Assembly (NCBI GenBank): GCA_023664105.1
Contig: JAMPGF010000001.1
Location: forward strand, 1 to 51,155
Reading direction: 5' to 3'
DNA from: Butyricicoccus sp.
GTDB lineage: Bacteria; Bacillota; Clostridia; Oscillospirales; Oscillospiraceae
DNA length: 51,155 bases
The notes under the pieces were generated by a model. That model was not told where the DNA came from. It did not search any database and was given only the letters and a program-made list of their open reading frames with translations. Below are positions 352 to 13,677 of this stretch, one piece after another. Position numbers and translations under genes: made by a program. Position 1 is the stretch's first letter, and each line of letters begins with the position of its first letter.

Positions 352-714
352 TCACGCCATCGGCAGTACTACAAGATGACCGTTCAAGCTTATGAAAATC
401 TCCGGTACGGCAAACTTAGCTGTGAACTTCTCGATTTGCTCATCTGTCAGCGAAGCAAAGCTGTCTCCGTCTATCCCGCAAATAAAGAAGACCCCGCACA
501 CAACATCATAGAGCTTGTCGCTGCTGTTCTGCATAATACGGTTAGCTGGCAGTCCAAGTATTTTACCCTCATCATTACAGACTAAGGCAACAGGGTCATC
601 AAAAGGGTATAATGCCTGTATAAGCCCGCCTACAGTTTCCTGCATAGATTCCAGCGTACCGTCGATATCTCTGATTTTCGGCTTCCTTTCTGGTTCAACC
701 ACTAAAATGCGCAT
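352..714 (-). CDS. DUF3846 domain protein (typical of conjugative-element and phage accessory regions)
   Basis: N-terminus MRILVVEPERKPKIRDIDGTLESMQETVGGLIQALYP matches the DUF3846 pattern (M.vlvVEPgk.P....I.g.LesmQ..VGG.Ie). Its start is 3 nt from the upstream ORF stop. Confidence 0.75.
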   Translation of the reverse strand: MRILVVEPERKPKIRDIDGTLESMQETVGGLIQALYPFDDPVALVCNDEGKILGLPANRIMQNSSDKLYDVVCGVFFICGIDGDSFASLTDEQIEKFTAKFAVPEIFISLNGHLVVLPMA

Positions 715-716
715 AT

Positions 717-941
717 CTATCTTACCTCCTTAGCCAGATTGCTGAAAAGCTCATCTACCATATCGGCGTCAAAGCCGTCAATGATGTCATAGTCACGGCA
801 GAAGGTCAGAAACCGCTTGAACATGCCTCGACCGAATCCGGCCTCGATGCGGCTTATAATATGACCTTGACGTATGGAATCAAGGCAGTCTGTTAAATCT
901 CCGCTGGTATTGCGGAATCTGCAATAGCTCATGTTTGACAC
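717..941 (-). CDS. Hypothetical small protein (74 aa)
   Basis: GTG start with a GGTGGG RBS ~9 nt upstream. It sits in an operon between the amidotransferase and the DUF3846 gene. No family recognised. Confidence 0.5.
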   Translation of the reverse strand: MSNMSYCRFRNTSGDLTDCLDSIRQGHIISRIEAGFGRGMFKRFLTFCRDYDIIDGFDADMVDELFSNLAKEVR

Positions 942-969: not shown

Positions 970-1896
970 TTATAGCCTTCCACAGTAAAGGAAATCCTCT
1001 ACATCTTCCAAGGTAAAGCCCTGCTCTAATATCGCGTCTATGTTCTCCGGAGTGTAGCCGAAGGATGCCGCCACAGACTTCACCTCGTCAAGATGCTTCT
1101 GCTCACGGCTTGCCCTGCGCTGATAGGAAAATCCCGTATAGAAGCCATACCGCATTGGCCAGCCAGACAAGAAGGATGACGTATCAAACTCAGCGCGAGT
1201 GATACCGCCAGCAGGGGAGACTTTCAGAATTTCTCCGCAGTCAGCCTTGATTTTTACGGGCTTTCCCATACGGAGCCGTGCCTTCCCCAAAAATTTGCTG
1301 AGTATTTCATCTGTAGAGGCATAGAGATACAGACTATAACGGGGGAAGTGCAACAGGCACATGGGGTTGTCTCCCTTAACCAGATACCAGTTATTCGCCT
1401 CGTCCAGAACGGTAAAAGTAAAAGAGCCCTCGACATGTTCAGCCATGTATTTCAGGCTGTCAAAGTCGAGGGCTTTCTTCTTCTCAATAAGCTGAACGGC
1501 AACGTAGCTGTCAGTCTGTATTTTGGTCTGTGGAAGCTTTTGAGAGCGGCGCAGTATGTGGTCGTTATGCAAAACGCCGTTGTGCGCCAGAGCAAAGCGT
1601 TTTCCACCCACCTGTCCTAAAAACGGGTGATTGTTATAGTTTTTCTTCTCACTGCCTTGGGTGGTCATCCGTGTGTGGCCCATTACAGCTACAGCGTCGT
1701 TGGGAATACGGAAGTTCAGCTTATGAGCTGGAACAGGGCGCTTATAGACATGCAAGCTCCCGCCGGAATTATAGGCTATTCCGGTAGCGTCCGTGCCTCT
1801 TGCCTCACACTCAGCTGCAAGGACAGACAACAGCGCTGTTTTCTGCCTTCCTGTAAAGTTTCCTCCATAATCAAGCATACCAAAAAGACAGCACAT
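970..1896 (-). CDS. Class-II (Ntn-type) glutamine amidotransferase domain protein
   Basis: N-terminal MCCLFG places a nucleophile Cys directly after Met. GHTRMTTQG and HPF...ALAHNG motifs are typical of the GATase_2 / Ntn hydrolase fold. The start codon overlaps the amidoligase stop (TGATG). Confidence 0.8.
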   Translation of the reverse strand: MCCLFGMLDYGGNFTGRQKTALLSVLAAECEARGTDATGIAYNSGGSLHVYKRPVPAHKLNFRIPNDAVAVMGHTRMTTQGSEKKNYNNHPFLGQVGGKRFALAHNGVLHNDHILRRSQKLPQTKIQTDSYVAVQLIEKKKALDFDSLKYMAEHVEGSFTFTVLDEANNWYLVKGDNPMCLLHFPRYSLYLYASTDEILSKFLGKARLRMGKPVKIKADCGEILKVSPAGGITRAEFDTSSFLSGWPMRYGFYTGFSYQRRASREQKHLDEVKSVAASFGYTPENIDAILEQGFTLEDVEDFLYCGRL

Positions 1897-3008
1897 CAGA
1901 TTTCCTCCTCATTTGTTACAGGCTCATTGACATACAGACGCTGTTCCTTCAAATACTGCACCAGCTCCGGCTGGGTACAGCCGGACACAAACGAGGTCCA
2001 CGCCATTGCTTGCAGAAGCTCATCAGACATATTGACGGCCAAATCACATATCCTGTCTACAAGCTGCACGGTGGCGATCAGGGTATTGTATTTGAGTGTC
2101 CCCCGAAAGATGCGGAACTCTATTGTGTCGCTGTTTTGAAGGTTTACCGAGGCATAGCGCCCTCGGCCGCAGCCGCTCTTGGCGCTGTCAAGTATTTCCA
2201 TTGGTTGATCCTTATAGCCATATCTGGCAGCCCAACGGTCAAGTTGGCTTTTGCTGCGGCGGCTGAATTTCAGAAGCTCGTCCCAGAATTTCTCCACTAT
2301 GTAGAGTATACGGGCGATGCACATCTCCTGCTGTGTTTCCGTATAGCCGAAAGCGGAGCGGTTGACATGGATATGCAATCCGCAGGTATTCGCCTTATGC
2401 GACAGGTAGCCCATTTTAACAGCCTCACCCAAGAGCTCCAGCCATGGCATAGATTGTTGGTGGTATTCCAGCGTCATAGGGTGAGTGACGATTTCAAAGC
2501 CGTCGGAAAGGCTTCCGTCGTGCTTGCAATATACCCGCTCCACACCTCGGTTTGCCTGTCGCATTAACTGACAGGCATGGTCGGAGTCTTCGCCGCCAGC
2601 GTCTATTTCAAGCTCCACGCCGTAATAGCGGCTGCCCTTGCCGTAGAAGATGGGTGTTGGCTTATAGGAGTAGTCGTGTATTTCCTTGTCACGTTGGCTC
2701 CTGCAATAGCAGCTCCAACATAACGGGTCATCCTGATCGCAGTCCTCGTCAGCATAATAGGCGTCATCGCAGTTGATGGTCCTGCCGCAGTGTTCACAGG
2801 TGGTATAGAAATTGTCATAGCAGGATCGGCAGAGGGGTATGCGGTCGTCTCCGGCGTTGTCGTCGTTCCAGATGCGCCGTCCACAGCGGGAGCAGGTTGT
2901 TGTTTCCAGCCCTATACAGCTTGGACACAGGAGCTGATCGTCAAACTCTATGAGCGATCCAAGGGAATGGGCTTCGCCGCATACGCTGCATCTTTCGAGT
3001 TCTCTCAT
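1896..3008 (-). CDS. Amidoligase (Amidoligase_2 / glutamine-synthetase-like COOH-NH2 ligase) with an N-terminal triple zinc-ribbon region
   Basis: Motifs YGVELEID, KHDGSL.DGFEIVTHP, CGLHIHVN and TIEFRIFRGT match the putative amidoligase enzyme family. The N-terminal ~110 aa carry six CxxC pairs. RBS is GGAGGTAATACC-ATG. Confidence 0.8.
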   Translation of the reverse strand: MRELERCSVCGEAHSLGSLIEFDDQLLCPSCIGLETTTCSRCGRRIWNDDNAGDDRIPLCRSCYDNFYTTCEHCGRTINCDDAYYADEDCDQDDPLCWSCYCRSQRDKEIHDYSYKPTPIFYGKGSRYYGVELEIDAGGEDSDHACQLMRQANRGVERVYCKHDGSLSDGFEIVTHPMTLEYHQQSMPWLELLGEAVKMGYLSHKANTCGLHIHVNRSAFGYTETQQEMCIARILYIVEKFWDELLKFSRRSKSQLDRWAARYGYKDQPMEILDSAKSGCGRGRYASVNLQNSDTIEFRIFRGTLKYNTLIATVQLVDRICDLAVNMSDELLQAMAWTSFVSGCTQPELVQYLKEQRLYVNEPVTNEEEI

Positions 3009-3032
3009 GGTATTACCTCCATAAATAAATTG

Positions 3033-3055
3033 CGCGGAGCAGTCAGCTCCGCGCT
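3033..3055 (-). terminator. GC-rich hairpin downstream of the XRE gene and immediately upstream of the amidoligase RBS
   Basis: GCGCGGAGC-AGTCA-GCTCCGCGC. On the minus-strand RNA it is followed by AAUUUAUUUAU. Only ~25 nt separate it from the amidoligase start, so it may act as an attenuator rather than a full stop. Confidence 0.45.
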
Positions 3056-3146
3056 TTCTATGAAGATAATATATAATTTCAGATTTTTTTGCTTGCGATG
3101 ACAGTCATTGTCCATATTGTTTGTTACAATTACTGATAGAATGTTG

Positions 3147-3380
3147 CTAATCGTCGAATTTCAGGAATTTGTAGGCAGGAATATCCAGCGCTTCGGCAAT
3201 AGCGAACAGCGTATCCATGGAAATTGCTTTGCTGATATTCGGCGCTTCTACATGGCCGATAAAGGCGGGAGTGCAGCCTATTTCTTCCGCAAGCTGTTCC
3301 TGTGTTAATCCTGTCAATTTCCGAAAGTATGAAATTTTCAAGCCAAGCTGTAAATATTGCGATTTATAGTGGGGATCCAT
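3147..3380 (-). CDS. XRE-family helix-turn-helix transcriptional regulator
   Basis: LKISYFRKLTGLTQEQLAEEIGCTPAFIGHVE is a canonical HTH_3 (Cro/CI) signature. It is divergent from the WYL operon. Confidence 0.85.
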   Translation of the reverse strand: MDPHYKSQYLQLGLKISYFRKLTGLTQEQLAEEIGCTPAFIGHVEAPNISKAISMDTLFAIAEALDIPAYKFLKFDD

Positions 3381-3424
3381 ATATTCACCTCGTTTATCTC
3401 TATTTTACTCCGCAGCGACAACTA

Positions 3425-3453
3425 TTGACATGACTTGAAAATTATAATATTAT
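3425..3453 (+). promoter_or_regulatory. Sigma-A-type promoter candidate for the WYL operon
   Basis: TTGACA (3425-3430), 17-nt spacer, TATTAT (3448-3453). Palindrome GCTCTGACAGAGC (3495-3507) lies in the predicted 5' UTR. Confidence 0.45.
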
Positions 3454-3523
3454 ATCTCTAAGACAGTGATATATATTTTTGAGATACTTAACATGCTCTG
3501 ACAGAGCAAAAAGAGGTAAAATT

Positions 3524-4474
3524 ATGGAGCGAATTTCGGAGGCAAAATCCACACGTTTGCTGACAATATACGCAAGGCTCCTGTCGGGACAAGTATTGAA
3601 CAAGAGGGCACTTGCCCTTGAGTTCAATGTTACGGAGCGGAGCATACAGCGTGATATGGATTCCCTGCGCTGCTTTTTGTCAGATCAGGGATTGGCTCAA
3701 AACGTGCTGTACGACCGCGGCAAGTATGGCTACTACCTGACAGACATCTTACCAAGGGGACTGTCAAACAGCGAGATACTTGCGGTGTGCAAAATCCTTC
3801 TTGAAAGCCGTTCGATGAGGAAAGACGAGATGTTCCCGATTCTGGACAAACTTATAGACTGCTGTGTGCCAAAATCTAACAGGGCTCTTGTTCTGAATTT
3901 GCTTTCCAATGAAAAGCACCATTACATCGAGCCGCATCACGGCGTATCCGTTCTTGATTGGCTCTGGGAGATTGGACAGGCAGTGCAGCAGCACCGTGTG
4001 ATGGAGATCGAATACCAGAAGCTGAACGCGAGGGAATGGGTACATCGCGTTATAGAGCCGGTAGGTATACTGTTTTCCGAGTATTACTTTTACTTAGCTG
4101 CTTATATCCGAAATATTGACCGGAAAGAATCATTTGAAAACCCAGCGGACAATTTTCCAACAATTTACAGAATTGACCGTATACGTTCTCTGTGTGTGAC
4201 GGATGAACGATTTTCACCTGCTTATTCGGGCAGATTTCAGGAGGGGGAGTTCAGAAAGCGCGTTCAGTTTATGTACGGAGGCAAGCTGCAAACTGTGCGG
4301 TTTACCTATTCCGGACCATCTATCGAGGCTGTGCTGGACAGGTTGCCGACAGCTAAGGTAGTGGATGAGCAGGAGGGGGTGTATACGGTCCAGGCAGAGG
4401 TGTTCGGCAAGGGAATCGATATGTGGCTACGCAGCCAAGGGGAGTTTGTGAGAACAATTAACCAGATTAATTAG
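3524..4474 (+). CDS. WYL-domain transcriptional regulator (HTH + WYL; YafY/PafBC/BrxR/CapW-like architecture)
   Basis: Start moved to the ATG at 3524 (AGAGG RBS). The N-terminal HTH is TRLLTIYARLLSGQVLNKRALALEFNVTERSIQRDMDSLRCFL. The WYL-like core is PVGILFSEYYFYLAAYI...TIYRIDRIRSLCVTDERF. Confidence 0.8.
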   Translation: MERISEAKSTRLLTIYARLLSGQVLNKRALALEFNVTERSIQRDMDSLRCFLSDQGLAQNVLYDRGKYGYYLTDILPRGLSNSEILAVCKILLESRSMRKDEMFPILDKLIDCCVPKSNRALVLNLLSNEKHHYIEPHHGVSVLDWLWEIGQAVQQHRVMEIEYQKLNAREWVHRVIEPVGILFSEYYFYLAAYIRNIDRKESFENPADNFPTIYRIDRIRSLCVTDERFSPAYSGRFQEGEFRKRVQFMYGGKLQTVRFTYSGPSIEAVLDRLPTAKVVDEQEGVYTVQAEVFGKGIDMWLRSQGEFVRTINQIN

Positions 4475-4485
4475 GAGGTTATTTT

Positions 4486-5325
4486 ATGCTTTATGTGAAA
4501 CCAAAAAAAGAAGCACTTGCCATCCATGAGAAAGCAGTGGTCAAATACAATTCTGCCTTTCAAGAGATGGAAAAATTAGGAAATCGTCTTTATGACAAGC
4601 GACTTGATTGTGTTGCACTAATACAAGAGATTGAGCTGCTGGTGAACAGTATTGCCAATCGTCCAAAGGAATTTGAAAAAAAATTCTCCGAAATTGAGGA
4701 GGCAAGTAAGAAGTTTAAGGAAACTGAGGCTTATGCGGTGGAGGCAATGGAAGCTACTATAAAATCAGGAGCAAGTGTTGCTGCTGGTATAGCAGGTGGC
4801 GCTGCTGTAGCTGGTTTGGCACCCTCAGCTGCTATGTGGGTTGCTACAACATTCGGAACGGCCTCTACGGGAACAGCGATATCTGCGTTACATGGTGCAG
4901 TTGCCACTAAAGCAGCATTGGCTTGGTTAGGTGGTGGTGCATTATCTGCTGGTGGTGCAGGCATTGCGGGAGGAAAAGCACTTTTAGCACTTGCTGGCCC
5001 CATTGGTTGGGGGATTAGCGGAGTAACCACAGCAGCATCGGCTGTGGCACTGGGGCACAAAAACAAAGAAATCTCGGATAAGGCCATTGCTGAGGCAAAG
5101 GAAATTACCATTGCTGGTGCGGAAGTAAGCGAAGCCAGTGCAAAAATTCAACATCTTACGGATGAAACTCTTATGCTACTGGGTTCTCTGCGAGATATGA
5201 CACAAGCAAATATGCCTCTAAAGGGTGCAGACTACTTGGAACTGAGTGACAATGAGCAATATCGCCTCGGAACAATGGTAAACAACACCTTGGCTTTGGC
5301 AGAAATGCTTAATAAAACGATCTAA
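4486..5325 (+). CDS. Uncharacterised protein: charged helical N- and C-terminal segments flanking a ~100-aa Gly/Ala-rich glycine-zipper hydrophobic core
   Basis: GGAGG RBS 7 nt upstream, and the start is 11 nt after the WYL gene stop. The core reads GASVAAGIAGGAAVAGLAPSAAMWVATTFG...LGGGALSAGGAGIAGGKALLALAGPIGWGISGV, with repeated small-xxx-small spacing. No family recognised. Confidence 0.7.
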   Translation: MLYVKPKKEALAIHEKAVVKYNSAFQEMEKLGNRLYDKRLDCVALIQEIELLVNSIANRPKEFEKKFSEIEEASKKFKETEAYAVEAMEATIKSGASVAAGIAGGAAVAGLAPSAAMWVATTFGTASTGTAISALHGAVATKAALAWLGGGALSAGGAGIAGGKALLALAGPIGWGISGVTTAASAVALGHKNKEISDKAIAEAKEITIAGAEVSEASAKIQHLTDETLMLLGSLRDMTQANMPLKGADYLELSDNEQYRLGTMVNNTLALAEMLNKTI

Positions 5326-5336
5326 GGAGGATGGCT

Positions 5337-6797
5337 ATGGACGCTGCACAAATCGTAAAAAGCACACAGGAACAGGGCGTTGCTGCATGGGTAAATTACC
5401 TGAATCAACTGAGGTTGAATGAGCTGGTGACAAAGCTTACTGCACAAGATACAAACCTGGAGGAGGCATTGGCAGAAATCCAAAAATTCAAATGTTTTAT
5501 CGGAGACCCAAATCATATTTTAGGCAGTGCAACTACGAAGCATGGTGAAATTGCGGAGAATGCCCAGGTCTATATTTCAAATGCCAGAAGGTTAATTGAG
5601 GGTTTATCTAAAGAGTTCACTTTTGAAGGAGTTGCCCGGACCGCTCCAGAAGATTATTTAAAAAATGGTCAACAAATTCAATCGAAATTTTTGCATGATG
5701 TGAAAGCAACACTAAACGGAAGCGGGAATGCCGAAGGCATCAGGCAACATATAGGAAAATATCCTTGGTTTGTGAAAAATGGTGGCTCTTATGATATCCC
5801 TAAAAATCAGTATGACGAAATCATGCGTGTTCTGCAATTACGGCAGGATTCCCCCACTCTATTAACAAGAGGGGATAGACGTTTGCTTGCAGCTATTGAT
5901 TCCTTTGAGAAAGAAACTGGATTACGCATATCTAAAGATGTGCGTCCCGCTGTGGTAAACTATAGCGATGTTCAGCAAGGAAAAGCCAATAAAACCATTT
6001 TAAAAGAAGAAACATCAATTAAAGATACAGACCAGAAGCGTCGTGATAACGCATATGAAGCCAGCAAACCCACGCTGAAACAGGGGGCGCAGGCCACTGT
6101 TGTTTCGGCTGCGGTGGAAGGTGGCATATCATTTTGCCTTGGCATAGCGAAAAAGCATAAACAAGGCAAACACCTTGCAGATTTCACGGCGGAGGATTGG
6201 CAGGAAGTTGGCATTGATACCGTAAAAGGAACAGCTCAAGGAGGTATCCGGGGTGGAGTAATTTATGCCATGACAAATTTTACTGCCACTCCCGCAGCTG
6301 TTGCAAATGCATTGGTAACAGCATCTTTTGGAATTGCAGCACAGGCTTATCAACTTCGGCAAGGCAATATTACGGAGGAAGATTTTATTGTAAACTCAGA
6401 GGTGCTTTGTCTTGATGTGTCTGTAAGCGCACTTGCTTCAATGTTGGGTCAGGTTTTGATTCCCATCCCCGTCCTTGGAGCAATAATTGGAAATGTGGCA
6501 GGCATGTATATGTATCAGATTGCAAAGGAACACCTTTCTGAGAAGGAGCAGGAACTGATTGCCAACTATCGCGAGAGTTTTGCAAATCTCAATGAAATAC
6601 TGGAGGAAAGATATAAAGAACTGATTGCCCGATTGAAAAAGGAATTTGCAAAGTATACTTCTGTATTGGAACTCGCCTTCGACATTAATGTCAATGTTGC
6701 TTTCAGCGGTTCCATTGCCTTGGCAAATTATGTTGGTGTAGCTCCTGAAAATATATTGATGAGCAAGCAGGATATTGATAAATTTTTTTTGAATTAA
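5337..6797 (+). CDS. Uncharacterised protein: ~235-aa soluble N-terminal domain plus a polytopic hydrophobic C-terminal region and a coiled-coil tail
   Basis: The second ATG (5337) has better spacing from AAGGAGG than the track start at 5331. Hydrophobic segments are VVSAAVEGGISFCLGIA, GGVIYAMTNFTATPAAVANALVTASFGIAA and LASMLGQVLIPIPVLGAIIGNVAGMYMY. No family recognised. Confidence 0.7.
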   Translation: MDAAQIVKSTQEQGVAAWVNYLNQLRLNELVTKLTAQDTNLEEALAEIQKFKCFIGDPNHILGSATTKHGEIAENAQVYISNARRLIEGLSKEFTFEGVARTAPEDYLKNGQQIQSKFLHDVKATLNGSGNAEGIRQHIGKYPWFVKNGGSYDIPKNQYDEIMRVLQLRQDSPTLLTRGDRRLLAAIDSFEKETGLRISKDVRPAVVNYSDVQQGKANKTILKEETSIKDTDQKRRDNAYEASKPTLKQGAQATVVSAAVEGGISFCLGIAKKHKQGKHLADFTAEDWQEVGIDTVKGTAQGGIRGGVIYAMTNFTATPAAVANALVTASFGIAAQAYQLRQGNITEEDFIVNSEVLCLDVSVSALASMLGQVLIPIPVLGAIIGNVAGMYMYQIAKEHLSEKEQELIANYRESFANLNEILEERYKELIARLKKEFAKYTSVLELAFDINVNVAFSGSIALANYVGVAPENILMSKQDIDKFFLN

Positions 6798-6813
6798 AAG
6801 GAGGATATGTTAA

Positions 6814-7350
6814 ATGGAAACAAATAATAGCGTCAACTATGAGGATGATTTTTTGGAGGATGTCCAAGAGTACGAGTACAAGGAGATGATTGAAAAGGCC
6901 AATAACATTGTGCTTGGCTTTACAGCATCCACTGGTGTGACTGGTGTAGTTCCCATACCGTTTGCTGATGCTCCACTGCTAATTGCGCAGCAAGTAGCTA
7001 TGATGGTTGCTATTAATGGAGTTTTTGAGTTTGACATTGAGCGTGACGCACTCAAATCTCTTGCTACGGCGGCGATTGGTGTTGGAGGCGCAACTGTGAT
7101 AGGTAAAACCGTTGCATCAAATCTCTTGAAGATGATTCCTGGAGTTGGATCGGTAGCAGGAGGAGCTATTTCTGCTGGCACAGCAGGGGTAATTACATTG
7201 GCATTGGGTAAAGCCTACATAGAAGTATGCAAGGCAATCAAAATGGGTAAGTTGGATCAGAGTGATTTGACAAAAAAAGCTGGGTTGGATATGCTCAAAA
7301 AATCTTTCAAGGAGCAGATGAAGAAAAAGAAGAGTGGCGATTCAGATTAA
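6814..7350 (+). CDS. DUF697-like membrane-associated protein (YcjF-type domain), stand-alone
   Basis: AAGGAGG RBS. GVVPIPFADAPLLIAQQVAMMVAINGVFEF fits the DUF697 core pattern (sP.p..D...l...q..Mi..Ia..yG). It is followed by Gly-rich hydrophobic segments and a lysine-rich tail. Confidence 0.6.
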   Translation: METNNSVNYEDDFLEDVQEYEYKEMIEKANNIVLGFTASTGVTGVVPIPFADAPLLIAQQVAMMVAINGVFEFDIERDALKSLATAAIGVGGATVIGKTVASNLLKMIPGVGSVAGGAISAGTAGVITLALGKAYIEVCKAIKMGKLDQSDLTKKAGLDMLKKSFKEQMKKKKSGDSD

Positions 7351-7388
7351 AGTCCTGACACGGTTATCTACCTATGAGCTTAATTAAG

Positions 7389-7417
7389 TTGACACTTACC
7401 CAACATCATGGTAAACA
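7389..7417 (+). promoter_or_regulatory. Promoter candidate for the excisionase-like gene
   Basis: TTGACA (7389-7394), 17-nt spacer, TG-n-TAAACA (7409-7417; extended -10-like). Confidence 0.35.
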
Positions 7418-7442
7418 ATCCACCGCAAAGGAGTGCGATACC

Positions 7443-7631
7443 ATGCTGGACGAATATGCTGATATCCTGACTGCTGACGAGGCTTGCGAGGTGCTGCGGG
7501 TAGGTTATAACACCCTGTACGCCATGCTCAACTCTGGGGAACTTAAAGCCTACCGAAACGGGCGCAGCTGGAGGATACCAAAGCTGGCTGTGCAGGAGTA
7601 CATACTGAAAAATGCCAGACTCAGCGCATAA
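7443..7631 (+). CDS. Excisionase-family / MerR-superfamily helix-turn-helix DNA-binding protein (HTH_17)
   Basis: Start moved to the ATG at 7443 (AAGGAG RBS). ILTADEACEVLRVGYNTLYAMLNSGELKAYRNGRSWRIPKLAVQEYI is the typical excisionase-type wHTH signature. Confidence 0.75.
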   Translation: MLDEYADILTADEACEVLRVGYNTLYAMLNSGELKAYRNGRSWRIPKLAVQEYILKNARLSA

Positions 7632-7637
7632 GAGGGG

Positions 7638-7667
7638 AGGCACCGGAACAGCTCCGGTGCCTTTCTC
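7638..7667. terminator. Bidirectional intrinsic terminator between the excisionase-like and relaxase genes
   Basis: AGGCACCGGA-ACAGC-TCCGGTGCCT followed by TTCTC. It lies between convergent stops at 7631 and 7672. Confidence 0.6.
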
Positions 7668-7671
7668 ACAC

Positions 7672-8163
7672 TTAATAATCTTTGCTTGACACATATTGTA
7701 GTTTATTGATACCGTAGTGTCTCAGTATGCCTCTCAAGGCGCTCTGAAACGCATAAAACTCCGATTTTCGTCCGTAATAGCGCGCACCAGTACGGTAACT
7801 CACTGAGTTATGTACAAGATGAAAATGAAGATTGGGCTTGTCCTCATGTACCGAGTAGAGGGCTTGATATTCTTGCCCTATATACTTTGCTGTATGTTGA
7901 GCAATTTCATTGGCAACAGCAGGATCATTCAATTCCCATGCCTCAAAGGAAATTATAAAGTGCCGAAGCTGAACACCATCCGTTTTGCCAAACCGCTCAG
8001 ATACAAGCGTCATACTTCCGGCGGGATTTATAAGGTCAACGCCTACTCCGCCAAAATACCCATGGATTGCTTTGTCCGCGCGGAAAATGTATTCGGTAAG
8101 CACCTCCTTGGCGTCTTCATTAAAGTATCTGCCTTTTCCATTTGCAGTTTTTAATATTGCCAT
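7672..8163 (-). CDS. Relaxase/mobilisation nuclease domain protein (MobA/VirD2-type), unusually short at 163 aa
   Basis: LRHFIISFEAWE and the histidine triad region HEDKPNLHFHLVHNSV fit the relaxase H.D...H.H..N motif. It is flanked by an AT-rich upstream region. Confidence 0.75.
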   Translation of the reverse strand: MAILKTANGKGRYFNEDAKEVLTEYIFRADKAIHGYFGGVGVDLINPAGSMTLVSERFGKTDGVQLRHFIISFEAWELNDPAVANEIAQHTAKYIGQEYQALYSVHEDKPNLHFHLVHNSVSYRTGARYYGRKSEFYAFQSALRGILRHYGINKLQYVSSKDY

Positions 8164-8434
8164 TTTAATCTCTCCTTATATTATCCTATATATTCTAATT
8201 ATTATATATTATCTTATTAATTATCTATATACAGTGTATATAACTAATCTAATACATAATTTTAATCTACTTACTTTTACTTTCTATATTGGTAGCAAGG
8301 GGAAGAACAGTATATATGTCCTTCCCCTTGGGGGCCCAAGTATTCTTTACATAATCGTTAGTTCCGTTATAAAAAATTACCTTGCGTTTTGCTCTATAAA
8401 TTCAGCCCTCACAAGCATTGCTGCCTTGTGGGGG

Positions 8435-9880
8435 CTAAATCTTCCATATGATGTTGACGCGGTTATCTTCCAGCAGGATGCGTTCTATAAACTCCGATGC
8501 TATCAGTTTCTTTTCCTCAAAGCTGGCGGCATCAAAGTCAAGACGTTTGCTGCATGGGGCCGGAGCTGTGCTTTGCGTAAGCAGAGTCTCGCGCTGTTTG
8601 TGAAGCTTGTCAATTTGCCTGGATATATATACGGCGGATATCTCGCTGCTCTCAGCCAAGGCATTGACCAGGCGCTCTATTTTTTGTTCCACGGCAAGAA
8701 GTGCCTCGGATATTTCCTGATTGTCTGTGCCTATGTCCTCCGCAGGACAGTCTGACAGCACATCTTTGATCTGAGCAGCAATCTGCTGCTCCAGCTCACG
8801 AAGGTCAATATGAATAGCTGCATCGCAGTTGGCCAGGTTGGAGCGGCCTGAGCATATCAGATAAAAACGTTTATCCGGTTTACTGTAGTTTATCTTCACC
8901 GCATAGCCACATTTATTGCATTTCATCAGTCCGGTAAGCCACGAGTATTTTCCGGCATTGGCGTGGGAAATCTGAGGGTTCTTTGCCAGCTTTTCCTGTA
9001 CGCGGAGCCAAAGGCCGGAGTCAATAATTCCCCCGTGGTTGGCAACTGTTAATTGTTGTCCCTCGAGGGAATTGTACTTATTCCTGCTTCTGTCTCTTCG
9101 TCCGATAACATTACATGCGTGAACGCCGTCAAAAGCCTCTAATGGCTGCTGTATCTGCATACCCATAGCCAGATAGTGTAAATACACATCCTCGTCCGCG
9201 CAAACGTACAGAGGGCTATGTAAGAGGCGAGAGAGGGTAACATTGTCCCAAGCCTCGCGCTTAGGGCCGTGGATACCCTGCGCAGTCAGATCTCTGGCGA
9301 TGCTGCGAAGGGAAACCTCCGGCCTTGCATACTCCTCAAAGATTTTCCGGACAATACTTGCCTGTCCGTTGGCGCGCAGCGATGACACCCGACGTTCATT
9401 GTCTGTGACCTTGATTAAATCAAAGCCATATGGAGCGGGGCCTCCTGGCCATGCACCCAGGGAAAAACGGTGAATATAGTTATCCTTGACACGTTCAGCA
9501 GTTGTCTCCCGCTCCAGCTGTGCAAAGACAAGCACGATGTTGAGCATTGCCCGACCGATAGGGGAGGATGTGTCAAAATTCTCGGTTACAGACAGGAACT
9601 CCACACCATACTTCTGAAACACCTCCCACAATCGACTGAAATCCGCTATAGACCGACTGAAGCGGTCAAGGCGGTATACATACACCTTTTTGATCTGACC
9701 CGCCTCTACGGCCTGCATAAGCTCTGTAAAGGCGGGGCGCTTTGTGTTCTTACCCGAAAAACCCTTGTCCTGAAAAACGCGGTAGTTCTCGTTCGCGTAT
9801 TTGCGGCAGTACTCTATCTGCCCCTCTATGGACAAACTGTCTTTTTTGTCTATAGATTGTCTTGCGTAAATTGCGTCCAT
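8435..9880 (-). CDS. Large serine recombinase (integrase)
   Basis: N-terminal resolvase domain MDAIYARQSIDKKDSLSIEGQ with catalytic Ser, YVYRLDRFSRS, a recombinase domain, a zinc-ribbon (CNKCGY...CSGRSNLANC) and a C-terminal coiled coil. Confidence 0.95.
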   Translation of the reverse strand: MDAIYARQSIDKKDSLSIEGQIEYCRKYANENYRVFQDKGFSGKNTKRPAFTELMQAVEAGQIKKVYVYRLDRFSRSIADFSRLWEVFQKYGVEFLSVTENFDTSSPIGRAMLNIVLVFAQLERETTAERVKDNYIHRFSLGAWPGGPAPYGFDLIKVTDNERRVSSLRANGQASIVRKIFEEYARPEVSLRSIARDLTAQGIHGPKREAWDNVTLSRLLHSPLYVCADEDVYLHYLAMGMQIQQPLEAFDGVHACNVIGRRDRSRNKYNSLEGQQLTVANHGGIIDSGLWLRVQEKLAKNPQISHANAGKYSWLTGLMKCNKCGYAVKINYSKPDKRFYLICSGRSNLANCDAAIHIDLRELEQQIAAQIKDVLSDCPAEDIGTDNQEISEALLAVEQKIERLVNALAESSEISAVYISRQIDKLHKQRETLLTQSTAPAPCSKRLDFDAASFEEKKLIASEFIERILLEDNRVNIIWKI

Positions 9881-9883
9881 GGC

Positions 9884-9997
9884 TCAACCCTCCGAGCGAT
9901 GCGCGCGTATAAGGAGAATGCAGCGGCGGTGAATTGCAGCCTGACGTGCCAGACGTTCTTTAACGTCTTTTGTTGTGAATGTGTTTGTAATAATCAT
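9884..9997 (-). CDS. Small ORF (37 aa) immediately upstream of the serine recombinase; possible DNA-binding or directionality factor
   Basis: Not in the ORF track (<60 aa). A strong GAGGAGG RBS lies 8 nt before the ATG. It encodes MIITNTFTTKDVKERLARQAAIHRRCILLIRAHRSEG. Its TGA lies 3 nt before the recombinase ATG. Confidence 0.35.
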   Translation of the reverse strand: MIITNTFTTKDVKERLARQAAIHRRCILLIRAHRSEG

Positions 9998-10211
9998 GAT
10001 AGTGTCCTCCTCATGAAAATGATATGTAGCTGAACCGAACCAATATTACTGAACGAACAGCCTTATGAGAAGGTTATGTCTTGTGTAAAACTTTACAAAC
10101 GCACAGTGATTAGCCGCTTGGGCAGCTCTGGCTAACAAGGATGATATAAGGTCGCTTTTTGTCCACGATAACTTATATAGAAAGAATAAGAATTTTCCCT
10201 ACAAAATCACT

Positions 10212-10240
10212 TTTCCTACAAGCGTAAGTTGTGATATAAT
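10212..10240 (+). promoter_or_regulatory. Extended -10 promoter candidate reading into repeat copy A and the 603-aa ORF
   Basis: TG-A-TATAAT at 10232-10240 with a weak -35 (TTTCCT, 10212-10217). Confidence 0.45.
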
Positions 10241-10270
10241 TAGCAAAAAGGAGTGAATTCACAAATGCTA

Positions 10271-10430
10271 ATACTAAAAACCGTTAAAAAGCTTTAATTC
10301 TATGTAAAGCTTTTTATAGCGCCGAAGGCGCGTCGGTTTTTTAATGAGACGGCACGCCGCGCAAAGCGCGGCGTGAGCGTGCGCAGCACGCGGAATTTCA
10401 AATTAAAGAATTTAATTTGAAATTAGTATA
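10271..10430 (+). repeat. Structured dispersed repeat, copy A (~160 nt; ATACTAA...TTAGTAT closing helix)
   Basis: Shares the conserved blocks ATACTAA, TATAGCGCCGNAGGCGCGTC, TTTTAATGAG, GAGCGTGCGNAGCACGCG and AATTAGTAT with 40441-40680 and, inverted, with 48061-48207. It contains five hairpins plus two enclosing helices. Confidence 0.85.
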
Positions 10431-10478
10431 AACGATTATGATGACATTCTTTGCGGCTACCACGTTGATAAGCGTTAT

Positions 10479-12290
10479 ATGTACATCAAGGATATAGAAA
10501 AACAAAAAAAGGACCGTCGACAAGAGATTATCGATACAATTAATGCGAGAGCATATATTAGCAATAGAAACCGATGTTATCCACCCTATTCCACTCCACA
10601 ATATCAAAATCCAGCGCTTTTCTTTTGGGCTATAAATGAGAATTTGCGGATACTTGGAACGAACCTGGAGCTTAATATGACCAGCATCGATGAATTGAGT
10701 CCTTATAGACAAAGAGAAATAAAAAGCGTATTGGGAGATTCGTGGTGGGAAGAACCTTTGCAAGACGTTTATTTTTATTTGGAAACACTACAATTTTCAG
10801 AATACTATAACGCGTTGCTGGCTTTTAAATGGGCAGCTCATTTGATATCATTTCCTTTGTTTGAGCAATATAACTGCGTACAAATGATTGACGGTAAGCT
10901 GTTTTGCAGATTATCCAACCAAAATGAGCTAAAGGATGATTATACTCGTATAGTACGATTAAGTAATGGTTTATACTTGTATAAGTATGATCCTCAAAAG
11001 AGTGTGAAGAAAGGCGAGCAAGGGGAAGGTTTGTTACTGCTGACTGATGAAATAGTGGGCGGATTAATCCGGCTGAATGGTGGTCAAAAGGATTTTTCAT
11101 TACGAAAGAAAAAGGATTTGGGTAAACACTTGGTCGAACTGCATGAGGATGATCCGTACGCTAAAAGGAACAGATTAGAAGGCGAAAAGGTAGTGCGCTA
11201 TCGGGAAGGTGTACTGGAATATGTTCCAACTATGGCTAAGGTACGATTCTCCCAAAAAAATGTTCCCGAATTGATATATTTGCCTTCTTTGGGCGGCTAT
11301 CCAGAGGAGGCCAAGCCATCAAAGCGCCTGGAAAATACGTTGCTATCTTTAACAAATGGGGATTTAGATAAGTTAGATGTTCTGGCAGAATTTCTGGCAC
11401 GTACATTTTGCATATCTGCACCGTCTAAGTACCTTTGGTATGTTCATGGAAATAGCGCAGCATTTGCCCAGTGGGTCGAAAAAATGGTTGAGGGCAAAAC
11501 GTGCAGCACAGTTTACAATCCCAAGCTCACTCAGGCAAGAATGGATCTCATATATGATCAAATAAAACAGCACCTAATTCAGTTTAATTCTGATCCGATA
11601 TCCGCAACAGAGTTCGCCAAATTGAACCACTCAAAATTAAATGGATACATAAACGGTGGTGAAATTATTGTCGTTGATGATCCCTATCAAATAAAGGAGA
11701 CCGAAAGCTACTATCCCCTTGTTGCATTTTTTAGCGAGGGGAACAGTATGGACACTGAAAAAGCATTTAGATCATTACCATATAAGGAAATCAATGTTCC
11801 AGACGGATGGACCTCAAAAGACCTCTCCCGTGAGGATTTCCAATGGCTGAAAATTTGCTTAGTTGCGAAAGGGTTGCAGTTAATTCAAGGATATGAACGT
11901 CGCAAAGTACAATCGGAACAAATAAATATAGATCACGTTGTTCGTCGGTTTGCAAATGATTTTTGCAAGCGCATTAAAGACAGTCGTACTGGATGTAAAA
12001 CGTTTTATAAAGCTTTGAAAAATTATTTAGATACTCTTCCGTATGATGGTAAGCTCGAAGGTTCGACCAAGACCACTGAATATGTGGCAGCACTAATGAA
12101 TTGGGAGTGTAAAGATGACAGGAAGAACAAAAATAGAAAAGCCTTCTGGGATATCTATCTTGATGAGGACAAGCTAAATGCAGCGATAGAAGAAAACAAG
12201 GCCAAAAAAGAGCAAGAGCAGCAGGAACGGGCTGCTCGCAGCTTCCACGAATACTTAAACGAGATTACTGAGCTTGTAATCTGGTCGTAA
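10479..12290 (+). CDS. Hypothetical 603-aa protein; C-terminal half weakly resembles P4/D5-type primase-helicase C-terminal regions but with a degenerate Walker A
   Basis: The long AT-rich ORF has no competing frame. KYLWYVHGNSAAFAQWVEKMVEG sits where G.G.NGKS is expected. GGEIIVVDDP is Walker-B-like. VVRRFANDFC...TFYKALKNYL is D5-C-terminal-like. No clear RBS at 10479, so the start is uncertain. The stop coincides with the element junction. Confidence 0.55.
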   Translation: MYIKDIEKQKKDRRQEIIDTINARAYISNRNRCYPPYSTPQYQNPALFFWAINENLRILGTNLELNMTSIDELSPYRQREIKSVLGDSWWEEPLQDVYFYLETLQFSEYYNALLAFKWAAHLISFPLFEQYNCVQMIDGKLFCRLSNQNELKDDYTRIVRLSNGLYLYKYDPQKSVKKGEQGEGLLLLTDEIVGGLIRLNGGQKDFSLRKKKDLGKHLVELHEDDPYAKRNRLEGEKVVRYREGVLEYVPTMAKVRFSQKNVPELIYLPSLGGYPEEAKPSKRLENTLLSLTNGDLDKLDVLAEFLARTFCISAPSKYLWYVHGNSAAFAQWVEKMVEGKTCSTVYNPKLTQARMDLIYDQIKQHLIQFNSDPISATEFAKLNHSKLNGYINGGEIIVVDDPYQIKETESYYPLVAFFSEGNSMDTEKAFRSLPYKEINVPDGWTSKDLSREDFQWLKICLVAKGLQLIQGYERRKVQSEQINIDHVVRRFANDFCKRIKDSRTGCKTFYKALKNYLDTLPYDGKLEGSTKTTEYVAALMNWECKDDRKNKNRKAFWDIYLDEDKLNAAIEENKAKKEQEQQERAARSFHEYLNEITELVIWS

Positions 12291-12292
12291 AA

Positions 12293-12562
12293 ACGTCCCT
12301 TGAAGCCGCTGCCAGTGGGGACAGTCTCGACTGGAAGGAGCTTTCGGCCTCGGAGATACATAAGCGTGTGACTGGGGGCGTGCAGGCGGGGAGCATTGTG
12401 CTGTTCCACAACGCCGCGCTGCACACGCCGGAGGCGCTGGCGGGGATAATCGAATACCTGCTGGCAAACGGCTATAATATTGTGCCTGTATCCGAGCTTT
12501 TGCTGACGGGGGAGTTTGAAATGGATCACACGGGCAGAATGTGCAGGCCCGGAACGGCCTGA
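12293..12562 (+). pseudogene. 3' fragment of a polysaccharide deacetylase (NodB/PdaB-like) gene, truncated by the element
   Basis: The in-frame translation from ~12293 is ...GDSLDWKELSASEIHKRVTGGVQAGSIVLFHNAALHTPEALAGIIEYLLANGYNIVPVSELLLTGE. This is the C-terminal third of NodB-fold deacetylases (DxxDW and LxH motifs). There is no N-terminal catalytic part and no start or RBS. The exact 5' boundary is uncertain. Confidence 0.7.
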
Positions 12563-12578
12563 CGGATTCAGGTTTTAC

Positions 12579-12621
12579 GCCGGTGCGGGGCAGCGTTTGC
12601 TTCCCTCACCGGCATTTTTTT
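12579..12621 (+). terminator. Intrinsic terminator after the deacetylase fragment
   Basis: GCCGGTGCGGGGCAGC-GTTT-GCTTCCCTCACCGGC (two G-U positions) followed by ATTTTTTT. Confidence 0.7.
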
Positions 12622-12684
12622 GCCGAAGCAGAAAATAAATGCTGTTTTTCCAACAAAAAATGTCTTCTGAAGGCCTTTAATTAT

Positions 12685-12700
12685 TGTCAATCGATTGACA
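12685..12700. promoter_or_regulatory. Perfect 16-bp palindrome (operator candidate) upstream of the nfnAB promoter
   Basis: TGTCAATCGATTGACA, 5 nt upstream of the -35 element. Confidence 0.4.
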
Positions 12701-12705
12701 GGCGC

Positions 12706-12733
12706 TTGACAATCGGCAGGATAGTAGTATAAT
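12706..12733 (+). promoter_or_regulatory. Sigma-A-type promoter candidate for nfnAB
   Basis: TTGACA (12706-12711), 16-nt spacer, TATAAT (12728-12733). Confidence 0.55.
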
Positions 12734-12834
12734 ATACATAAATTAAAGGGGAAAAAATTATAGTTTATGCCCTATTAAGTACACTGTAATCAATTCAATG
12801 ACAAGGGATAAAATATATTTAGGAGGCAGTACGT

Positions 12835-13677
12835 ATGTACAAAATTGTCAAAAAGGAGGCGCTCAGGCCCGCGGTCATACTTTACGAGATTGAAGCGCCT
12901 CGCATCGCCAGGAAGGCTCAGCCCGGTCAGTTCATAATCCTTCGCGTGGACGAAAACGGCGAGCGTATCCCCATAACCGTTCATGATACGGACGCTGAGA
13001 AGGGGACCGTCACCATTATCGTGCAGATCGTTGGTTCGACCACGGCCAAGCTCAATCACCTCAAGGAGGGCGATTGCCTCCAGGATTTTGTGGGCCCGCT
13101 GGGACGGCCTACGGAGACCGAGGGAAGGAAAAAGGTCTGCGTTGTCGGCGGCGGTGTCGGCTGCGCGATCGCGTATCCCGTGCTGCGTAAGTTCCACGAA
13201 AGCGGAGCGGAGGTACATGGAGTCATTGGATTCAAGAGCAAGGACTTCGTCATTCTTGAGGATAAGTTCCGCGAATCTTCCTCGCTGCTGAAGGTATGTA
13301 CGGATGACGGCAGCTACGGCGAAAAGGGTCTCGTTACTCAGGCTCTGAAGCAGCTGATAGACGACGGCAACGAGTACGACGAGGTTTTCGCAATCGGCCC
13401 GATGATAATGATGAAGTTTGTCAGCGAAACCACGAGGCCGTACGGCATAAAGACCACGGTGTCGATGAGCCCCATCATGATAGACGGAACCGGCATGTGC
13501 GGCGGCTGCCGTCTCAGCGTCGGCGGCAAGACGAAGTTCGCCTGTGTCGACGGCCCCGACTTCGACGGTCACGAGGTGTCCTGGAACCTGGCTATCGACC
13601 GCAACAAGAGCTATATGGAGTTTGAAAGGCACAGATACGAAGAAACCTGCAGGCTGTTCCAGCAGGAGGAGGGTTAA
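12835..13677 (+). CDS. nfnA: NfnA-type sulfide/dihydroorotate dehydrogenase-like FAD/NAD-binding subunit
   Basis: AGGAGG RBS. The N-terminus MYKIVKKEALRPAVILYEIEAPRIARKAQPGQFIILRVDENGERIP, the Rossmann VCVVGGGVG and the C-terminal cluster motif GTGMCGGCR...FACVDGP are typical of NfnA/GltD-partner proteins. Confidence 0.85.
   Translation: MYKIVKKEALRPAVILYEIEAPRIARKAQPGQFIILRVDENGERIPITVHDTDAEKGTVTIIVQIVGSTTAKLNHLKEGDCLQDFVGPLGRPTETEGRKKVCVVGGGVGCAIAYPVLRKFHESGAEVHGVIGFKSKDFVILEDKFRESSSLLKVCTDDGSYGEKGLVTQALKQLIDDGNEYDEVFAIGPMIMMKFVSETTRPYGIKTTVSMSPIMIDGTGMCGGCRLSVGGKTKFACVDGPDFDGHEVSWNLAIDRNKSYMEFERHRYEETCRLFQQEEG

Follow-up and report, generated by a model that had tools for sequence, protein, structure and literature searches.

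What does a four-gene operon headed by a WYL-domain regulator, and otherwise made up of three membrane-associated proteins, do for the bacterium that carries it? The operon lies in a 51,155-nucleotide stretch of DNA from Butyricicoccus sp. (GenBank assembly GCA_023664105.1, contig JAMPGF010000001.1, positions 1 to 51,155 of the forward strand; this whole stretch is called the window here), and its second, third and fourth genes are referred to as A, B and C (Table 1). A previous reading of this DNA, made by inspection and hereafter called the sequence-only reading, proposed that the operon encodes an undescribed defence or abortive-infection system with no match to any named system. We found that genes A and B do match a named system along their full length, and that the locus is almost certainly a member of PDC-M09, a two-gene family catalogued by PADLOC as a phage defence candidate.

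The identification is carried by profile matches to PADLOC-DB v2. Gene A matched PDC-M09A (PDLC04406, E = 2.2e-97; PDLC04407, E = 1.1e-96), with its residues 1-279 aligned to positions 1-280 of the 282 in these models, and gene B matched PDC-M09B (PDLC04408, E = 1.7e-181), with residues 4-488 aligned to positions 3-486 of 486. The two genes are adjacent, lie on the same strand and follow the same order as in the PDC-M09 definition, with which they share a predicted defence role; gene C had no matching model in this database. Known Abi, CBASS transmembrane-effector, Kiwa and Zorya-type proteins were rejected as identities for these genes, as PADLOC returned only PDC-M09 for A and B and nothing for C. 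The profile match to a named system is therefore clear, although the name is a catalogue label for a predicted candidate.

PDC stands for 'phage defence candidate', and Payne et al. (2024) predicted 145 such cassettes on the criterion of "guilt-by-embedding", that is, the presence of at least one copy inside a BREX, DISARM or type I restriction-modification (RM) locus (bioRxiv 10.1101/2024.01.29.577857). PDC-M09 is the two-family cassette CAS_00055 (FAM_02775>>FAM_02807), entered with the number 380 in the supplementary table of that study (10.1101/2024.01.29.577857), and its definition contains two genes and no description of function or domains. To this definition the window adds a DUF697 gene and a WYL regulator, and its A and B proteins are 80-82% identical to their nearest database relatives (A 82%, B 80%; the corresponding value for C is 88%). 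The window thus holds a variant of an already catalogued family, one that has gained a DUF697 subunit, is regulated from a WYL/XRE head and travels on an integrative mobilisable element, and our literature search found no earlier description of any of these three features for PDC-M09.

In order to separate the core of the system from its accessories, we compared gene order across 93 loci. Gene A was immediately 5' of gene B in 84 of these (the exceptions include contig ends), gene C immediately 3' of B in 42, a WYL homologue 5' of A in 25 and a related XRE gene in 12; beyond these five, no gene family occurred in more than 11 loci. The actinobacterial, Klebsiella, Lactococcus and Leptolyngbya copies were bare A-B pairs, whose stop and start codons often overlap in Actinomycetota, and three independent natural A-B fusion proteins of 758-876 amino acids were also found (P0369, P0404 and P0482, the last with an extra N-terminal extension of ~90 residues). 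Judged by this gene order, the A-B pair is the obligatory unit of the system, and WYL and XRE are a separable regulatory head. Strict adjacency and natural fusions, although indirect evidence, suggest that A and B very probably form one complex. The idea that the system is under WYL control consequently stands for this operon, which a WYL regulator does head, but not as a constant of the family, given the 25 of 93 loci noted above.

Gene B comprises a long N-terminal helix, an α/β head (residues ~60-245), membrane-associated helices (~250-400) and a C-terminal coiled coil. The AlphaFold2 (AF2) model had a predicted local distance difference test score (pLDDT) of mostly 85-96, with dips to 74-84, over residues ~40-240, and of less than 50 over most of 300-410. 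Across an alignment of 132 representatives, in which column identity averaged 28%, G65, G72, E76, Q117 and K119 were invariant, all of them in the head, and H71, D108, H140, Y144, Y154 and P157 were at least 90% conserved, giving the head signature HGxIAE...D...QxKF...HxxxY. The DSSP order of the head is helix 70-89, strands 109-111 and 114-118, helices 124-149 and strand 153-156; E76 lies within the first of these helices, D108 just before strand 109-111, and Q117-x-K119 at the end of strand 114-118. QxK variants of the PD-(D/E)xK active site occur in TnsA and Mrr, and the residue pattern of gene B resembles such a site, with an acidic residue in the first helix, an aspartate before β2 and Q-x-K on β3. 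We infer from this pattern that the head may contain a nuclease site of the PD-(D/E)xK type in its QxK form, on a predicted α-β-β-β-α-β core. However, no such family was recovered for gene B in either profile or fold searches, including a Pfam scan of 42 members that returned no PD-(D/E)xK family at E ≤ 1, and membership is not established. A B match beside a TnsA-like gene in Rhodococcus pDF03 was discarded as a nuclease link, being a truncated B remnant next to a transposon gene.

These observations change the picture of gene B given by the sequence-only reading, which recognised in it no enzyme signature with confidence and described it as a soluble domain fused to a polytopic membrane region. 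The N-terminal domain does contain invariant polar residues, and the soluble domain was recovered as a confidently modelled α/β head, predicted to be cytoplasmic. In contrast, the polytopic part of the description is unproven, because only residues 357-395, which hold the conserved motif GQxLIPIPVLGAxIGN, form a strongly hydrophobic stretch. The presence in B of a conserved head of ~200 residues with catalytic-looking invariant positions also makes it doubtful that the operon encodes a membrane-only effector set, as had been suggested. Elsewhere in the protein, residues 285-360 resembled DUF3482 weakly but repeatedly (in 16 of the 42 members scanned, with E = 0.003 at best), and residues 311-440 gave a marginal match to the N-terminal region of δ-latroinsectotoxin (E = 0.035) that is not interpretable. 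Some B homologues (e.g. P0039 and P0075) carry the precomputed tag PF27347.1, but rescanning these two against Pfam did not recover a PF27347 match.

Gene A has helices at residues 4-93 and 182-278, on either side of a central segment (~94-190) rich in Gly, Ala, Thr and Ser. About 80 residues of this segment are near-invariant across phyla, from Clostridia to Klebsiella and cyanobacteria (ATTFGTASTGTAIS-LSGAAA-NAALAWLGGG...LALAGPIGW). The AF2 model of A was poor (pLDDT 42), and its Kyte-Doolittle hydrophobicity did not exceed 1.5. Marginal matches were obtained to LeoBC (E = 0.0054, PADLOC) and to phrog_1272, which represents hydrophobic segments of phage tape-measure proteins (E = 7.8e-4). 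As A lacks a signal peptide, and as its C-terminus is joined in the fusion proteins to the cytoplasmic N-terminus of B, which likewise has no signal peptide, the central segment would be expected to dip into the membrane and return on the cytoplasmic side. A profile search of Protein Data Bank (PDB) sequences with a diverse alignment of A returned only coiled-coil or low-complexity noise, and no meaningful solved-structure relative was found by sequence for A, B or C. The membrane parts of the three proteins showed no significant homology to one another by hhalign (probabilities of 0.8-3.6%).

Gene C, which the sequence-only reading had described as DUF697-like, indeed matched that family (Pfam PF05128, E = 2.8e-11, 43.9 bits versus a cutoff of 27.7, residues 14-153). 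It bears Gly-rich IPxP motifs and is 74-87% identical among its close relatives. Nearly all of the loci with gene C have a B protein at least ~45% identical to that of the window, and they form a clade consisting mainly of Clostridia, with single bins of Synergistales, Treponemataceae and Bacteroidales; the gene is absent from the actinobacterial, Klebsiella, Lactococcus and Leptolyngbya A-B pairs. Gene C is a lineage-specific accessory that encodes a putative third subunit. DUF697 and DUF3482 are elsewhere fused to GTPases with a presumably housekeeping role. The operon resembles such GTPase-linked proteins through the DUF697 domain of C and the weak DUF3482 likeness of B, the similarity of B to DUF3482, like that of A to LeoBC, being below threshold.

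The arrangement of the four genes agrees with an operon. The sequence-only reading described four closely spaced plus-strand genes divergent from an XRE gene, and this was borne out by the coordinates of the open reading frames (ORFs), supporting an operon-like cassette with the WYL regulator at its head. The gaps are 11 nucleotides (nt) between the WYL gene and A and 16 nt between B and C; for A and B the distance depends on the start codon of B, and is 11 nt with ATG 5337 and 5 nt with ATG 5331. The former is the better start, because a GGAGG sequence lies 6 nt 5' of ATG 5337 but abuts ATG 5331, because at least 90% of homologues share M3, and because homologues are 486 amino acids long. Ribosome-binding sites were seen before each gene (AGAGG for the WYL gene, AGGAGG for A, B and C). 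The promoter candidate already proposed at 3425-3453 proved to be the best match in the region, and its -35, its -10 and the sequence downstream are conserved in homologous WYL-headed loci (L087, L011 and L020).

The first gene was confirmed as a WYL regulator (PF13280, E = 8e-10, residues 149-223), with a weak helix-turn-helix (HTH) part (HTH_11, E = 0.001, 19.4 bits, under the Pfam cutoff of 25). It also matched two PADLOC WYL models (8e-19 and 7e-15), and since the alignment to the second of these, PDLC01652, covers residues 144-310, the regulator has a C-terminal extension. The divergent XRE gene matched HTH_3 (E = 7.4e-10) and the PADLOC models HTH_VI, capH and C-protein-like. A repeat search of the intergenic region showed two inverted repeats, TATATCTCT/AGTGATATA at 3451-3473 and TATCTCTAA/TTTGAGATA at 3453-3486, which overlap and follow the -10, and a perfect palindrome, TGCTCTG-A-CAGAGCA, at 3494-3508; the first part of this candidate operator region is conserved across WYL-headed loci.

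Many defence loci are headed by WYL repressors like BrxR and CapW, the latter being a sensor of single-stranded DNA (ssDNA) (PMC9122601, PMC9122589, PMC11662680). The window resembles these systems in that an HTH + WYL regulator is the first gene, directly 5' of a candidate defence cassette, in that inverted repeats are found at the promoter of the regulator, and in that the regulator is separable from the cassette, occurring in some loci only. It differs from them in that its WYL regulator has no detectable similarity by sequence to solved WYL regulators at E ≤ 0.01, in that its HTH scores below the Pfam threshold, and in that an extra, divergent XRE regulator is present. By analogy with BrxR and CapW, it is probable that the operon is kept silent by its regulator until DNA damage or infection induces it.

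The family is large and widely scattered. Gene B has 981 relatives at 90% clustering. An exhaustive search, clustered at 50% identity, yielded 800 clusters, and 261 of these had E-values below 1e-30. A genome scan with the closer B alignment as query, limited to one genome per species, found 80 loci, distributed among Oscillospiraceae, Lachnospiraceae, Peptostreptococcales, Erysipelotrichaceae, Synergistales and one treponeme, as well as many Actinomycetota (such as Arthrobacter, Nocardia, Microbacterium, Gordonia and Eggerthella); A-B pairs were also found in Klebsiella, Lactococcus and cyanobacterial plasmids. Relatives of B occur on 61 plasmids (46 from Klebsiella, 5 from Lactococcus, and others), 30 of which are conjugative. 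In the Klebsiella pneumoniae IncFIB plasmid NZ_CP031790.1 (8153-10452), for example, the A-B pair lies between psiA and the tellurite ter cluster, and the Klebsiella plasmid B is ~35% identical to that of the window. Among 50,697 phage records there was a single, unannotated B match, and the reading of the cassette as prophage cargo was rejected on this ground.

One variant of gene A, the identical protein P0222, was present in 2058 index blocks of an assembly collection that consists largely of gut metagenomes. It belongs to a ~9 kb element (loci L087-L093, e.g. L087 4375-12839) that encodes a serine recombinase, a NikA-like protein, DUF6809 and XRE, followed by WYL-A-B-C on the opposite strand, and that occupies at least three chromosomal sites, beside the PBP5, KARI or pantothenate kinase gene. 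The operon is essentially the sole cargo of this element, and the only obvious one, and the element has been very successful in the gut microbiome. In the window the same WYL-A-B-C module has another backbone around it, which shows that the module can pass from one element to another.

The sequence-only reading considered the operon to be cargo of an integrative mobilisable element, which is supported by the excisionase-like, relaxase-domain and serine recombinase genes that follow it (Table 1) and by a block of low GC content. From position 1 to ~12.3 kb the GC content is 37-53%, versus 55-65% in nearly all later 1-kb windows, a drop that marks this region as foreign DNA. The relaxase-domain ORF, at 163 amino acids, spans only the nuclease domain of MobA/VirD2 and could be a minimal or truncated relaxase, and the mobilisability of the element is therefore uncertain.

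The genes within three positions of A-B varied among the loci, but defence genes recurred. These included GmrSD/SspE/HEC-06, PD-T4-6 kinases, HerA, PD-Lambda-1, PDC-S04 and PDC-S48, as well as MkoA-like helicases, BrxC, SIR2, Fic and integrases. HsdR, PprDinG and the PDC-S37/Hhe helicase stand directly beside A-B in Nocardia and Frigoribacterium, and a restriction endonuclease and an AAA ATPase flank the pair in Leptolyngbya. In two unrelated lineages, Lactococcus and gut Clostridia, A-B lies amid LeoBC-like (Eleos-like) dynamins; in Lactococcus lactis pSD96_06 (2250-13325) the A-B pair stands between two dynamin genes, with a HEC-06/DUF262 protein before the first of them and DUF4230 after the second. 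This adjacency, together with the marginal LeoBC match of A, constitutes a likeness to Eleos, but A, B and C have no GTPase domain (no Dynamin_N or MMR_HSR1 in the Pfam scan), and most A-B loci have no dynamin neighbour. No conserved conjugation, secretion or envelope-synthesis context was found for the cassette in the 93 loci; a role in conjugation or secretion was rejected as the principal explanation, since no transfer gene is conserved beside it. A check of synteny and co-localisation, which the sequence-only reading had called for, thus places the relatives in variable and often defence-rich neighbourhoods rather than in conjugation, secretion or envelope housekeeping loci. This context amounts to guilt by association, which agrees with the independent embedding criterion of PADLOC and is suggestive of defence rather than proof of it.

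Several details of these neighbourhoods were recorded in addition. One of the two dynamins of pSD96_06 is LeoBC-like, and both have a weak N-terminal XRE-type HTH, which is stronger in the LeoBC-like one. In two gut Clostridia loci (L002 and L003), dynamin pairs lie 5' of A-B-C, accompanied by genes for a HerA-like ATPase and for a WHH nuclease with its SUKH immunity partner. In a further gut locus (L001, 975-11977) the WYL gene heads a longer co-directional array, in which a CxxCxxCC protein, a 726-amino-acid protein, a HerA/DUF87 ATPase, a WHH nuclease and SUKH immunity precede a terminal A-B-C. The L001 array suggests that WYL-controlled 'super-operons' join several candidate defence or toxin modules.

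We propose that the locus probably has a role in defence against phages or other mobile genetic elements and, with a probability of roughly 40%, that it exerts this role as an inducible, membrane-tethered enzymatic complex. In such a complex A and B, joined here by C, would sit on the cytoplasmic face of the membrane, with the two termini of A and the B head predicted to be cytoplasmic from the absence of signal peptides. The putative membrane anchors are a Gly/Thr-rich hairpin in A, an IPIPVLG hairpin in B, and DUF697. The α/β head of B would be the catalytic part, probably a nuclease, and tethering would hold the enzyme off the nucleoid and near the site of entry of foreign DNA. The WYL-headed operon would be repressed until ssDNA or DNA-damage signals de-repressed it, as for CapW and BrxR.

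The logic of tethering has been shown experimentally for SNIPE (PD-λ-1), a nuclease that is bound to the membrane and cuts phage DNA as it is being injected (10.1101/2025.11.03.685801). The proposed likeness lies in a cytoplasm-facing enzymatic domain that is tethered to the inner membrane, off the chromosome and at the point of DNA entry. SNIPE, however, is a single protein, unrelated to B, with an N-terminal transmembrane segment, DUF4041 and a GIY-YIG nuclease, whereas A, B and C match neither PD-Lambda-1 (PADLOC) nor DUF4041 or GIY-YIG (T5orf172; Pfam). Moreover, the anchor of B is C-terminal to its head, a partner (A) is needed, and the nuclease activity of B is a prediction only.

A number of observations weigh against a membrane-tethered enzymatic defence complex. 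Our literature search found PDC-M09 named in no paper and no later characterisation of it, so that its status as a defence candidate is that of a prediction, and in one study in which four of eight PADLOC candidates protected E. coli, PDC-M09 was not among the eight. In many loci the three nearest genes on either side of A-B include no defence gene. The nuclease reading of the B head is drawn from a residue pattern and a strand order; the head has no family match in Pfam, NCBIfam or PHROGs, profile searches of PDB sequences with B and with its head returned only coiled-coil or low-complexity noise, and a Foldseek comparison of the whole B model with PDB and BFVD gave nothing at E ≤ 0.001 and no nuclease in the top 50, the matches being mostly long-helix noise. 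Modelling was poor for the membrane half of B and for the whole of A, and their topology is therefore a prediction. Finally, the extreme conservation of the Gly/Thr/Ser motif of A is no less compatible with a channel or pore than with an anchor, and may suit the former better.

This last point leads to the main rival explanation, abortive infection through a gated pore that permeabilises the membrane, which we consider unlikely and which takes up the membrane-disrupting module suggested in the sequence-only reading. The zipper of A, the hairpin of B and DUF697 would form the pore and the head of B its sensor or gate; opening upon infection would collapse the membrane potential, so that the cell is sacrificed and the phage stops growing, and WYL repression would limit toxicity. 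A near-invariant stretch of this composition and length in A exceeds what a simple anchor needs, Gly-rich IPxP motifs recur in B and C, and the weak similarities of A to tape-measure segments and LeoBC, and of B to δ-latroinsectotoxin, point in the same direction, as does the use of WYL control by toxic abortive-infection systems such as CBASS (PMC11662680, PMC9122601). The hydrophobicity of A is modest for a pore, however, no significant similarity to known pore-formers or to the transmembrane effectors of PADLOC was found, and most A-B pairs lack a dedicated repressor, which argues that the complex is not intrinsically very toxic. A pure pore would also leave the catalytic-looking invariant residues of the B head unexplained. 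It is improbable, in our estimation, that the function lies outside defence altogether, for example in an envelope or membrane-stress module akin to the GTPase-linked DUF697/DUF3482 proteins, the association with defence islands then reflecting only mobility. The domain affinities of C and B, the recurrent dynamin-family and DUF4230 neighbours, and the position of the Klebsiella pair by the tellurite cluster and of one locus by rubrerythrin and Fur would all suit such a module, but the patchy, multi-phylum spread on mobile elements lacks any conserved metabolic or envelope neighbour, the cassette was first identified embedded in BREX, DISARM or type I RM loci, and the neighbouring dynamins, being Eleos-like, are defence candidates in their own right.

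There is also a slim chance that the cassette serves its carrier, either by entry exclusion or anti-conjugation directed at competing plasmids or integrative and conjugative elements, or as a stabilisation or addiction module. Its being the sole cargo of the widespread ~9 kb serine-recombinase element, its presence on 61 plasmids (including Klebsiella IncFIB near psiA), its near-absence from phage genomes and a membrane location suited to blocking DNA entry are consistent with this. In Actinomycetota and many Clostridia, on the other hand, the cassette is chromosomal and stands beside restriction and helicase defence genes rather than transfer modules, and the Pfam and PADLOC searches linked it neither to a known exclusion protein nor to a toxin-antitoxin pair. 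Anti-plasmid and anti-phage roles are in any case compatible, and this explanation overlaps with the tethered enzymatic complex that we prefer. A bolder reading, which we regard as less likely than not, is that PDC-M09 may be a mechanistically new membrane-embedded immune complex, composed of a previously unrecognised, nuclease-like head, an ultra-conserved Gly/Thr-zipper partner and, in a mainly Clostridia clade, a DUF697 subunit, which would use membrane modules of the type otherwise joined to dynamins or other GTPases, act at DNA entry, be WYL-inducible, and be spread among human-gut Clostridia by the ~9 kb element and in Klebsiella by IncF plasmids.

Should PDC-M09 prove to work in defence, it would be a widespread system without a characterised mechanism, counting some 800 clusters (50% identity), the reach of which includes clinical Klebsiella IncF plasmids, dairy Lactococcus plasmids and the gut element found in 2058 index blocks, and it would have a bearing on phage therapy against Klebsiella and on the phage resistance of dairy starter strains. 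If it is not, it is still a striking conserved membrane module. The present analysis makes the family tractable by defining A-B as the minimal unit and DUF697 and WYL as accessories, and by pointing to residues E76, D108, Q117 and K119 of the B head, the motif of A, and a candidate promoter-operator region.

Table 1. Coordinates of the PDC-M09 operon, its control region and neighbouring features in the window
Feature	Position	Strand	Remarks
WYL regulator	3524-4474	+	316 aa; first operon gene
Gene A (PDC-M09A)	4486-5325	+	279 aa
Gene B (PDC-M09B)	5337-6797 (ORF opens 5331)	+	486 aa from ATG 5337
Gene C, DUF697 small membrane protein	6814-7350	+	178 aa
XRE-family HTH regulator	3147-3380	-	Divergent from operon
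Sigma-70-type promoter TTGACA-17-TATTAT for the WYL-A-B-C operon	3425-3453	+	11/12 match
Candidate operator region	3451-3508		Inverted repeats and palindrome (repeat search)
HTH_17 excisionase-like gene	7374-7631 (probably starts at ATG 7443)	+	Pfam HTH_17 1e-15
Relaxase-domain ORF	7672-8163	-	Pfam Relaxase 2.8e-21
Large serine recombinase	8435-9880	-	Pfam Resolvase/Recombinase/Zn_ribbon_recom
phrog_3777 protein	352-714	-	Upstream of XRE
74-aa protein	717-941	-	Upstream of XRE
Class-II glutamine amidotransferase	970-1896	-	Upstream of XRE
Amidoligase_2 protein, N-terminal Cys-rich repeats	1896-3008	-	phrog_16683 8e-98

The remainder of the element was also surveyed. A 603-amino-acid ORF (10479-12290, plus strand) lies in the part of the element with the lowest GC content (37-41%); it had no match in Pfam, NCBIfam, PHROGs or PADLOC, and is another cargo or replication gene of the element. 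The GC content climbs at ~12300-12600, just to the right of this ORF, where a short ORF (12368-12562, plus strand) resembles by eye the C-terminal end of a polysaccharide deacetylase, which suggests that the element inserted into or beside a polysaccharide deacetylase-like gene. The left end of the element falls outside the window. On the other side of the operon, the glutamine amidotransferase and amidoligase genes form a pair that also adjoins the cassette in two other loci.

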